Positions 53,501 through 55,340 of a stretch of DNA of 64,000 nucleotides are shown piece by piece; the stretch's first letter is position 1; the number at the start of each line of letters is the position of its first letter. The stretch is from Perna viridis (Eukaryota), in the NCBI GenBank assembly GCA_037379345.1, contig CM074513.1:7006001-7070000 (forward strand), read 5' to 3'. The notes beneath the pieces are model-generated. The model did no database searches. It was not told the origin of the DNA and saw only the letters and a list, made by a program, of their open reading frames with translations. The translations under genes and the position numbers were made by a program.

Positions 53501-53580
53501 AAAGTCTACTTGCTCTAAAATATTACTAGATTCATGAAACAACTGTCTATACGTTGTTAGCATATATACATATATATATA

Positions 53581-54019
53581 TGTCACAGAATGTGGCGACT
53601 CTATTCGCTACACTGCTCCATCGGATCAAATTGATACAGGGAAGATATATAAACGTATAGAAAGGTCTGTAAAATTCCCAACGATGTTAGAACTGTCAAA
53701 TTTTCGATGCAAATTTTTGGTCGTTCCTTTCGCGGGACTCGAACTCCTGTGACATCTACGGCAACACCGCCTGCACAAAGTCCAGCGCCCTAGACCACTC
53801 GGCCAGCTAGGCTATATAAAGATATAGCTTTCGCTGGCCGGGTCATTCCTCCTTGTAGGATTAATCTAGGGCTGTAACTTAGTACACGATGTATGGTAGT
53901 ACGGGACAGTTCATTTTAGATGTTATTATGTAGGATAAAGGATCAAATTAATGATCCATGTCACAACAACTCAATATTATACAATGTCTCAGAATGTGAC
54001 GACTCTATTCGCTACACTG
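53581..54019 (-). mobile_element. tRNA(Leu/Ser)-derived 404-bp unit with a 35-bp terminal direct repeat, abutting (TA)n
   Basis: 53581-53615 equals 53985-54019 at 33/35 positions. Minus-strand A box TGGCCGAGTGG (53795-53805) and B box GTTCGAGTCC (53735-53744). Confidence 0.75.
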
Positions 54020-55340
54020 GTCCTTCCTCAGGATAAAACTCGTAACACTATATGAGCATAAAACTCACAAAAATTCACGAGCAAAACAACTCACGAAGTT
54101 CACGATCAAAACAGATTCAGAAGCAGAATCGCGTAAGCTGTGGGTGATTGTACCTTTATCAAAGGCTCACATAAGCAACTGATAAGGAGCCTGAATGAAA
54201 ATAACAAAGAGGGTCTTTTTATCAAAGTTACAATTAACTGTGGAAAACAATTTAAAAAAAATAAAAAGTCCAAATATAGTAGTACGGCGTATTGGTGTAT
54301 AGCAAGTAGTGCTGTACTAGCCTTAGACCAAGACCTAAAATGGATTATTTTTTCTCGTTTATTCCATCTGGAGAAGTTGTTTGTAATTTCTTCATCCAAA
54401 AGCTTTCCTGAGGTATTCTTTTACATTTTGACCAGATTTTATTATGTTCTATGATCGTAACAACAATGTTGCGGAGATCCTTCTGGATGTGTCCGGCGGA
54501 TCTAAGATGGCGATTTAGAGGGAGATCTGGTTTGCATTTGTAGTCACTGCGATGACCATTCATACGCCTGTTGAAAGGTTGTTCTGTTTCACCAACGTAC
54601 CACATACCACAACGGCACTGGAGAAGGTATATGGTATTTTCTCTTATCTCCACATGGTCGACACTGGCCCGTTGTATTTATTTGGGCAGAGATGAAATCT
54701 CTGCTCTTACTAGGTCATCTCTTAGGCTCCTAGGTCTACGGAATGCCAGGGCCGGGGCCCCAGGAAAGAGCTTGGAGAGCTTGGGATGTTTTTGAATGTC
54801 TTTCCAATTTGAATGCAGTAACTGCGAGAGTTTTCCAAAGGCTGGATGGTATGTAAGCACAAAAGGGACCCTTTTGTTCTTTTTCTTAGGTTTGTACTTG
54901 AGGAGATCTTTACGGCTGATTTTGTTAGCACGTTCAAATCCCCGATCTATATCTGTTGATTTATAGCCACGCGATAGCAAATGACCACGGAGTTCATCTA
55001 GACGTTTGTTGGTAGTATCGCCAGAAGAACAAATACGCCGAATTCGAAGTGCCTGACTGTATGGTATGCTTTTAGTACAATATTTTGGATAACAGCTATT
55101 GGGAGATAAGTATTGGTGACTATCAGTTGGTTTGCTGTGAAGATCCATGGACATTTCCCCGTCTTGTACAAACATAGTAGTATCCAAAAATGTGATTTTA
55201 GTGTCAGAAATGTCATGAATGAATTTGATTGATGGATGAACATTGTTGGCATGCATGATAAAATTGTCTAAATTTTGTTTCGACCCAGTCCATTTCATGT
55301 CAACATCATCGATGAATCGAAACCAAGAGATTGTCATTTT
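54020..55340 (-). mobile_element. 5'-truncated canonical Penelope-like element (RT then C-terminal GIY-YIG), Neptune-like
   Basis: WFRFIDD...FLDT...KPTDSHQYL...SIPYSQALRIRRICS...LRDDLVRA, partial Cys linker CRPC, then NTIYLLQCRCGMWYVGET...RMNGHR...FWMKKLQT..PDGIN. Confidence 0.92.

Follow-up and report, generated by a model that had tools for sequence, protein, structure and literature searches.

The window is the whole stretch of 64,000 nucleotides of Perna viridis DNA analysed here (contig C3, 7006001-7070000); the genome searched comprises 723 Mb in 46 contigs. In the window, a truncated Penelope-like element (PLE) of Neptune type runs directly into a short, non-coding unit with a tRNA-derived head, and the chimera is flanked by decayed BEL/Pao retroelement sequence. 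Unit positions (U1-U409) refer to a consensus built from 34 full copies at the 30 best loci, where U1 is window position 53983. The features are as follows.

51111-53561, minus strand: decayed BEL/Pao LTR-retroelement sequence flanking the chimera, recognised by Peptidase_A17 matches
53562-53581, no strand: (TA)n tract at the primed end
53582-53599, minus strand: candidate priming site B, the site used by the window insertion, recognised from 3' ends; the motif is mutated in the window copy
53582-53983, minus strand: full permuted unit, 95% identical to the family consensus
53662-53682, minus strand: candidate priming site A, GTT-N12-AGAC-CTT followed by TATA, recognised from 3' ends and the motif; it holds the second T-run, a putative leaky terminator
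53735-53812, minus strand: tRNA-Leu(TAG)-derived head, aligned to the host tRNA-Leu(TAG) gene in L235; A box at 53805-53795, B box at 53744-53735
53817-53822, minus strand: putative end-to-start joint, a T-run (TCTTT in the window copy) followed by the putative RNA polymerase III (Pol III) start at 53817, in a predicted hairpin loop; proposed from the 5'-end peak, non-T letters and the fold
53984-54023, minus strand: upstream partial unit, comprising the final 40 nt; its site-B motif at 54003-53986 is intact
54021-54023, minus strand: GGA, a 3-nt microhomology between PLE and unit
54021-54031, minus strand: first half of the PLE's minimal type I hammerhead (CTGAGGA and the start of stem II), severed at the junction; from a descriptor scan, with the complete motif in other copies
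54021-55330, minus strand: 5'-truncated Neptune-type PLE of family A, with the C-terminal half of the reverse transcriptase (RT), a GIY-YIG endonuclease (EN) and a 3' UTR; its own 3' end is missing

The PLE fragment is 94% and 93% identical to positions 1200-1890 and 1987-2608 of another copy (L222). It corresponds to amino acids 400-760 of protein P0001, with the GIY-YIG domain recognised by Pfam; a 96-nt deletion lies near 54640, and the Cys linker is lost. An earlier note on this DNA had placed a PLE RT-EN and a 3' UTR before the unit. Both are present, but the PLE ends at 54021, after CTGAGGAAGGA, and not at 54016. At 30 of 30 other PLE loci, CTGAGGAAGGA is followed by PLE sequence, which in most cases completes the hammerhead, and never by the unit; the unit is thus not a constant part of the PLE's own pLTR, a reading that the earlier note had considered. 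Since the hammerhead is complete at other PLE loci, the half that had been suspected at the junction belongs to a real hammerhead, which the window severs at GGA. Its features agree with those of the minimal hammerhead as PMC4209133 presents it.

On the unit side, a 43-nt repeat (54026-53984 versus 53622-53580 on the minus strand, 404-bp spacing, 91% identity) bears out the claimed terminal redundancy but not its length. The CCAGT that follows the PLE end is unit-derived (a GCAGT variant occurs in 3 of 186 unit copies) and GGA is microhomology, so the redundancy is 40 nt, or about 1.10 units, rather than 35. The claimed 404-bp unit with A and B boxes is also present, as is the (TA)n tract at its end, but the unit boundary is one of two candidate priming sites and not the start of an element. 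Simple insertion of the unit into a PLE is ruled out, since the lost PLE 3' end is not found on the far side of the TA tract. In this chimera, the unit provides the 3' end of the Neptune fragment. We infer a template switch at this locus; for a single site, a later deletion between two adjacent insertions is the alternative.

The BEL/Pao flanks share a 55-nt repeat (51111-51165 and 55644-55698), and 55331-55698 is probably the other flank of the same element as 51111-53561. The upstream flank of the chimera is single-copy, and the interrupted BEL/Pao element is apparently single-copy. Elsewhere, the window holds another GIY-YIG fragment with a Cys linker (41270-41677, minus strand), 34% identical to P0001 and from a different PLE family; a 159-bp tandem repeat of 3.9 copies (44308-44906); a dispersed repeat with a GTCGTC-rich stretch (50994-51041, 57225-57265, and 57839-57879), to which sequence flanking several unit loci is related; and an ARAGORN tRNA-Glu call in very AT-rich DNA (57003-57098) that is probably spurious.

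Copy number, ends and head of the unit family

The unit, about 407 bp long, has at least 3,481 exact-match sites in the genome. Three 23-25-mer unit patterns gave 1,581, 3,481, and 2,885 exact matches and their reversed controls gave 0, which places the element proposed in the earlier note in a family far beyond chance. A partial copy precedes a full copy at 29 of the 29 best other loci. As this query was biased, loci were then sampled by position: 150 stretches in the first 22 Mb of contig C1, giving 112 merged loci. Segmental duplicates were left out (6 of the 112 merged loci for the 3'-end count, 9 of the 112 for the anchored-segment and target site duplication [TSD] counts), and set overlaps and one duplicate were removed for the 5'-end analysis. 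Segmental duplications that copy unit or PLE insertions together with their flanks occur at L084-L087, L091/L092/L126/L131, L093/L096, L149/L150, L267/L268, and L280-L282. A seemingly longer variant unit of 497 bp (L091/L126/L131) was rejected, being a unit-PLE-B-unit cluster in a segmental duplication.

The positional sample yields 244 segments in 106 loci, with 61 of their 3' ends at site A (about U330), 86 at site B (about U409), and 97 elsewhere. TA tracts stand at 50 of 61, 64 of 86, and 10 of 97 of these ends, respectively, that is, at 114 of 147 for the two sites together; the expected anchoring at (TA)n holds, but with two candidate priming sites in place of one fixed end. Among 105 anchored segments, 82 are anchored at microsatellites, 53 are paired head-to-head, and 26 are longer than one unit, so head-to-tail arrays are present; the longest tandem measures about 2.5 units. 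TSD candidates of at least 5 nt were found in 5 of 122 insertions against 9.3 in shuffled pairs, in a count where TA tracts are trimmed and a TA duplication is invisible. Copies are 5'-truncated, tandem, or head-to-head, with variable 5' ends and no internal region between units. An ordinary monomeric SINE with TSDs does not fit these counts, and the ends are not the fixed ends of a TRIM's LTR; both readings had been put forward as alternatives.

Arrays of more than two units can be nearly identical inside (internal difference 1.2% in L012, 2.3% in L025, and 3.4% in L020). Some multimers must have arisen in more than one event, since the units of several tandem pairs are 5-13% apart or belong to different subfamilies. 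Unit pairs differ by 7.4% and PLE-A copies by about 5-6%, which indicates a similar age. A metagenome scan for divergent relatives returned two matches at the same contig start, and the one examined is a chance 19-mer.

The unit head aligns to the host tRNA-Leu(TAG) through the D arm, the anticodon arm, and the T loop; ARAGORN makes no tRNA call on the unit. Separate long tandem arrays with a tRNA-Leu pattern lie on contig C6 (6661038-6776058, 57 matches, mostly with a 1,087-bp period; ARAGORN calls Leu(TAG) in the C6 locus tested) and on contig C7 (14452028-14550592, 41 matches, about 700-bp period).

Two T5 runs mark the unit consensus, U161-165 and U315-319. Unit 5' ends cluster at U163-170, right behind the U161-165 run and 5-8 nt before the tRNA 5' end: 15 of 226 on C1, where 4.4 are expected, and, in a separate set of loci chosen at random or by their PLE, 12 of 91 against an expectation of 1.8. 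Non-anchored 3' ends gather at the U315-319 run (8 of 96 versus 1.65 expected). On this reading of the sequence, the two clusters fit a Pol III unit. A second 5'-end peak on C1, at U183-190 (17 of 226), was not replicated (1 of 91), and an RT stall at that position was dropped.

The joint, between the first T-run and ATATAG, is unusually variable. Of 88 copies, 25 carry non-T letters there, compared with 8 of 171 for the other T5 (p=2e-7). The same variants turn up repeatedly in different subfamilies. It is crossed in 93 of 120 first passes, which extend upstream of the tRNA head in a sample partly picked by an upstream pattern (58 of 86 in a stricter set), and in 14 of 20 second passes. Linkage between diagnostic variants, measured as r2, is as strong across the joint as across site B, with values of, for example, 0.74 vs 0.56, 0.56 vs 0.56, and 0.62 vs 0.93. 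As linkage is kept across the joint, joining is mostly intramolecular, and intermolecular jumping is ruled out as the main route.

The RNA is predicted to fold into a branched rod (z -4.3 as a circle, z -4.2 for the natural dimer) with the joint T-run in a terminal loop, so that the two ends of a monomer spanning U166 to U165 would be kept side by side. The predicted rod may be the relic of an old inverted duplication. The U39-U161 arm (window 53945-53822) is a degenerate reverse complement of parts of U166-U396, and this complementarity suggests that the unit arose from head-to-head insertion of a simpler SINE. Contigs of four runs guessed to be RNA cover the unit; the contigs carry no starts, ends, or strand.

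The earlier note had found no intact known ribozyme in the unit, and for hammerheads the descriptor scan upholds this: with up to two mismatches allowed, the sense strand of the consensus holds no core, and none of 34 full copies has a perfect core, while the same scan recovers both PLE hammerheads (A and B) as controls. Rfam gave no ribozyme or tRNA match at E<=10 on the window and four loci; it also missed the PLE hammerhead in L042, so its ribozyme null is uninformative. Two candidates were set aside: a hammerhead-like stretch near the unit 3' end, which needs three core changes and is absent from the descriptor scan, and a twister-like stretch, which lacks the required adjacency when judged by eye against the twister consensus.

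Neptune-type elements and their contacts with the unit

Neptune elements, as characterized in PMC8557442, have an RT, a C-terminal GIY-YIG with an internal Cys pair, and an upstream CX2-5CxxC linker. P0001 shares these features: it has RVT_1, CX4CxxC at 626, and IYLLQCRCGMQYVG at 666, that is, an RT, a GIY-YIG domain with the Cys pair, and the upstream Cys linker. The putative helper is thus called Neptune-type by its domain features, and it may instead belong to Nematis. The 27-mer behind the PLE-A hammerhead has 244 exact matches. An 843-codon PLE-A frame is open in L217 (contig C1 67574000-67580000, minus strand); it follows the family's own 3' extension (pLTR) and could serve in enzyme assays.

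A second Neptune-type family, B, has 40-61% amino-acid identity to A and its own minimal hammerhead, and it adjoins units. Family B is seen at L012:2386-3463, L018, L119, and the L093 merged locus (3655-4000), and has two motif-bearing 3' ends 86 nt apart. L160 holds a third Neptune-type family, about 70% identical to family A in amino acids. The PLE of the window had been proposed as the helper; this is supported, but at least two Neptune families qualify.

A short motif, GTY-N10-13-AGAC-S?-WT, occurs twice in the unit (sites A and B), twice in the 2,783 nt of PLE-A, and at the PLE-B end. It stands on 2 of 2 AGAC on the unit sense strand and on 2 of 12 in PLE-A. TA-flanked PLE-A ends fall at the motif in 36 of 40 cases (bins 2680-2699 and 2770-2789), with 3 more at 2660-2679, and the TA match to the target sits just 3' of the motif. 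Five of the six sites were already known when the motif was drawn up; the second PLE-B end, which had no part in its definition, fits as well, and the background is 54 in 800 kb, or 0.07 per kb. Beyond these approximately 20 nt, no longer similarity between unit and PLE was found.

PLE-A and the unit are also neighbors. Among 40 position-sampled PLE-A loci, 20 adjoin a unit, or 19 of 37 once duplicates are removed; the figure for random 2.5-kb windows is 5 of 160. Among 48 score-selected loci, drawn from sets that share five loci, 21 adjoin a unit. Random TA tracts adjoin a unit in 1 of 75 cases for at least 4 TA units, 1 of 17 for at least 5, and 1 of 4 for at least 6, the control for long tracts being thin. 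Tail-to-tail contacts across TA make up 18 of 44 junction rows, and these could stem from a shared target alone; TA-free joins cannot. Same-strand TA-free joins from PLE to unit occur at PLE positions 1425, 1705, 1792, 2608 (the window), and 2759, so the junction of the window recurs in kind, and head-to-head joins and unit-to-PLE joins are further types. In 10 of 40 PLE-A loci a junction has less than 8 nt of TA; some of these are not clean, as they lie where a PLE ends.

At 136 unit loci, flank clustering and tblastn recognized only Neptune-like RT elements as adjoining, with queries that contained no Naiad or LINE library; two other RT matches lay at least 480 bp away. L261 (contig C2 8266200-8269100) is a compact mixed-template example, with alternating PLE and unit pieces and three unit 5' ends at U169-170.

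Routes by which the unit may be copied

With moderate confidence, and from sequence evidence, we regard the unit as a non-coding retroelement of high copy number, derived from tRNA-Leu; a Neptune-type PLE RT-endonuclease likely copies it, and its tandems likely form by jumping. Neptune is very probably the helper; given that helper, a jump from the start to the end of the RNA is a fairly probable route. Template jumping is a property of retroelement RTs. Pol III would start about 5 nt before the tRNA head, often pass the first T5, and stop at the T-run one unit later, leaving a monomer of about 407 nt with ends predicted to pair. The Neptune enzyme would nick (TA)n and prime internally at site A or B, recognizing GUY-N10-13-AGAC and using the short UA run behind the motif for priming. 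At the RNA 5' end, the RT would either stop (in about a quarter of passes) or jump to the neighboring 3' U-tail, at times with the addition of an untemplated base. Such a jump would permute the unit, restore the promoter's own upstream flank, and allow more than two units. Synthesis would end by truncation, by joining to another cDNA whose priming took place on the opposite strand (head-to-head), or by a switch to Neptune RNA; in the window, the switch would have occurred at GGA inside the hammerhead after 1.10 units. Transcription would have to pass one T5, which 160 of 171 copies keep intact, and yet stop at a similar T-run. Joint variation could also come from slippage at the TA-rich palindrome or from selection for broken terminators under read-through, and some 5' ends at the joint may be microhomology joins to target TA.

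The same helper could work with no jump, if multimers came from Pol III read-through of tandem sources in which an upstream head transcribes the downstream unit, as is described for Sm-alpha and PLE partial tandems. Read-through likewise predicts 5' ends at the Pol III start, kept linkage, and a benefit from interrupted T-runs; the two T-runs are short (T4-T5), and transcription certainly passes one of them. With sources of at most two units, however, the second pass would nearly always stop, and most observed second passes cross the joint. Read-through alone cannot lengthen arrays, yet L012, L025, and L020 hold nearly identical arrays of more than two units; of 238 anchored segments, 14 surpass the length that a read-through RNA of 1.6 units would permit, and the joint variants recur across subfamilies. 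We therefore hold this route to be unlikely. Less likely still is a circle, in which a host ligase would close the monomer and the same helper would reverse transcribe it by rolling circle, making the unit a ribozyme-free retrozyme. The whole-unit rod-like circular fold and the arrays of more than two units that share private variants would suit it, and ragged RNA ends before ligation could explain the heterogeneity of the joint. Yet a closed circle lacks a 5' end, and 5' ends peak at the joint in two samples; the unit has no hammerhead to give ligatable ends, and a primary Pol III transcript carries a 5' triphosphate, which counts against a ligated circle. The earlier note had proposed one priming event with a Penelope helper and a circular template or template jump: the scheme is supported, but a linear Pol III monomer is likelier than a ribozyme-made circle.

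That another enzyme, a Naiad PLE or a LINE with the same preference for (TA)n, copies the unit, and that the Neptune contacts reflect a shared target and later deletions, is very improbable. Tail-to-tail contacts do predominate, and Naiads favor (TA)n according to PMC8557442. Against it stand the terminal motif common to six unit and Neptune sites and the TA-free unit-Neptune chimeras in three orientations; the finding of Neptune-like neighbors alone in 136 loci, where no Naiad query was used, speaks against it indirectly. We give almost no credence to the unit being the LTR of a tRNA-bearing TRIM of the Helenus/Cassandra type, an ordinary SINE with satellite-like expansion, or part of a PLE pLTR. 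A tRNA-like sequence in mid-unit and tandem units are found in Pol III TRIMs as PMC10886601 portrays them, but the unit has variable 5' ends, two TA-anchored 3' ends, and half of its copies head-to-head; it shows no TSD and no internal region between units, and is absent at the matching point of all other PLE 3' regions compared (30 of 30). The favored reading remains a linear Pol III monomer primed internally by a Neptune enzyme and copied across its own paired ends by jumps.

Known systems and the place of the unit

The closest known systems each share some features with the unit and differ in others. Sm-alpha and Sj-alpha of schistosomes, in the account of PMC6765202, also have a Pol III promoter in a short tandem unit, and in them, too, what is transcribed is offset from the register of the promoter, and propagation needs a tandem state. 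Sm-alpha monomers are cut by a hammerhead, which the unit lacks, and the passages on Sm-alpha name no helper, whereas the unit is tied to its candidate helper by a motif and by chimeras. Animal non-LTR retrozymes are described as non-coding tandem units of about 300-400 bp with structured RNA, again like the unit, and PLEs have been proposed as their helpers (PMC7229834; bioRxiv 10.64898/2026.07.22.740005). By the definition in PMC7229834, every retrozyme unit carries a type I hammerhead and the RNA is circular; the unit is tRNA-headed and ribozyme-free, with a linear 5' end as judged from sequence. The available text of the retrozyme preprint (bioRxiv 10.64898/2026.07.22.740005) makes no mention of tRNA, promoter, or polymerase III.

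Among PLEs, PMC8557442 presents MRC1 of Chlamydomonas as non-autonomous with 3' similarity to its autonomous partner, a relation that the unit shares; unlike in MRC1-type PLEs, the unit's similarity to its helper is only the motif of about 20 nt, present twice. PLE insertions in the same source, like those of the unit, include partial tandems and inverted 5'-truncated copies, favor microsatellite targets, and show no discernible TSD. Its sections on non-autonomous PLEs describe no tRNA head or Pol III promoter, whereas the unit has a tRNA head with A and B boxes.

tRNA-derived SINEs (SINE2, bivalve HCD) resemble the unit in their tRNA head with A and B boxes, short body, and 3' signal shared with a partner (PMC11481361). 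The partners of bivalve SINEs given there are LINEs (CR1, CR1-Zenon, L2, Nimb), with PLEs unmentioned in that part of the source; the unit's probable partner is Neptune-type. A SINE starts with its head and is primed from the 3' end of its RNA, while the unit is permuted and would be primed internally. Helenus, Ajax, and Cassandra, as PMC10886601 describes them, are similar in that a non-LINE retrotransposition machine has captured a Pol III promoter; they use LTR machinery with PBS/PPT and fixed ends, and the ends of the unit are variable. By analogy, the unit would be the Penelope counterpart of Pol III TRIMs.

The unit is PLE-like in insertion and, by its sequence signals, SINE-like in transcription; it falls outside retrozymes and canonical SINEs and has the testable features of a non-autonomous PLE. 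The unit is probably a non-autonomous PLE passenger, with a plausible new replication trick. As a tentative proposal, to which we give slightly less than an even chance, such elements would form a distinct class of ribozyme-free Pol III "SINEs of Penelope": the promoter flank would lie at the RNA 3' end, the gene would be rebuilt by an RT jump on a rod-shaped RNA, and GUY..AGAC would be the cis signal for internal, telomerase-like priming on (TA)n. We found no description of a tRNA-derived, ribozyme-free PLE passenger in the literature searched, with Repbase, Dfam, subscription journals, and supplements outside the search; the unit family may already be deposited in Repbase or Dfam. What is new is the 5'-end peak before the tRNA-Leu head together with the variable joint.

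That PLEs drive short non-coding passengers in animals has so far been argued from shared hammerheads and co-occurrence, as presented in PMC7229834 and bioRxiv 10.64898/2026.07.22.740005. The unit family adds physical PLE-passenger chimeras and a shared candidate priming signal. PMC8557442 states that the mechanism of PLE insertion is unresolved and that an in vitro system is needed. The family offers a template of about 400 nt, a candidate recognition motif of about 20 nt, a target, and an open helper frame, so that internal priming, tandem formation, and inversion become directly testable. A hammerhead is not required for tandem units, and families of this kind are probably mis-annotated as SINEs or satellites.
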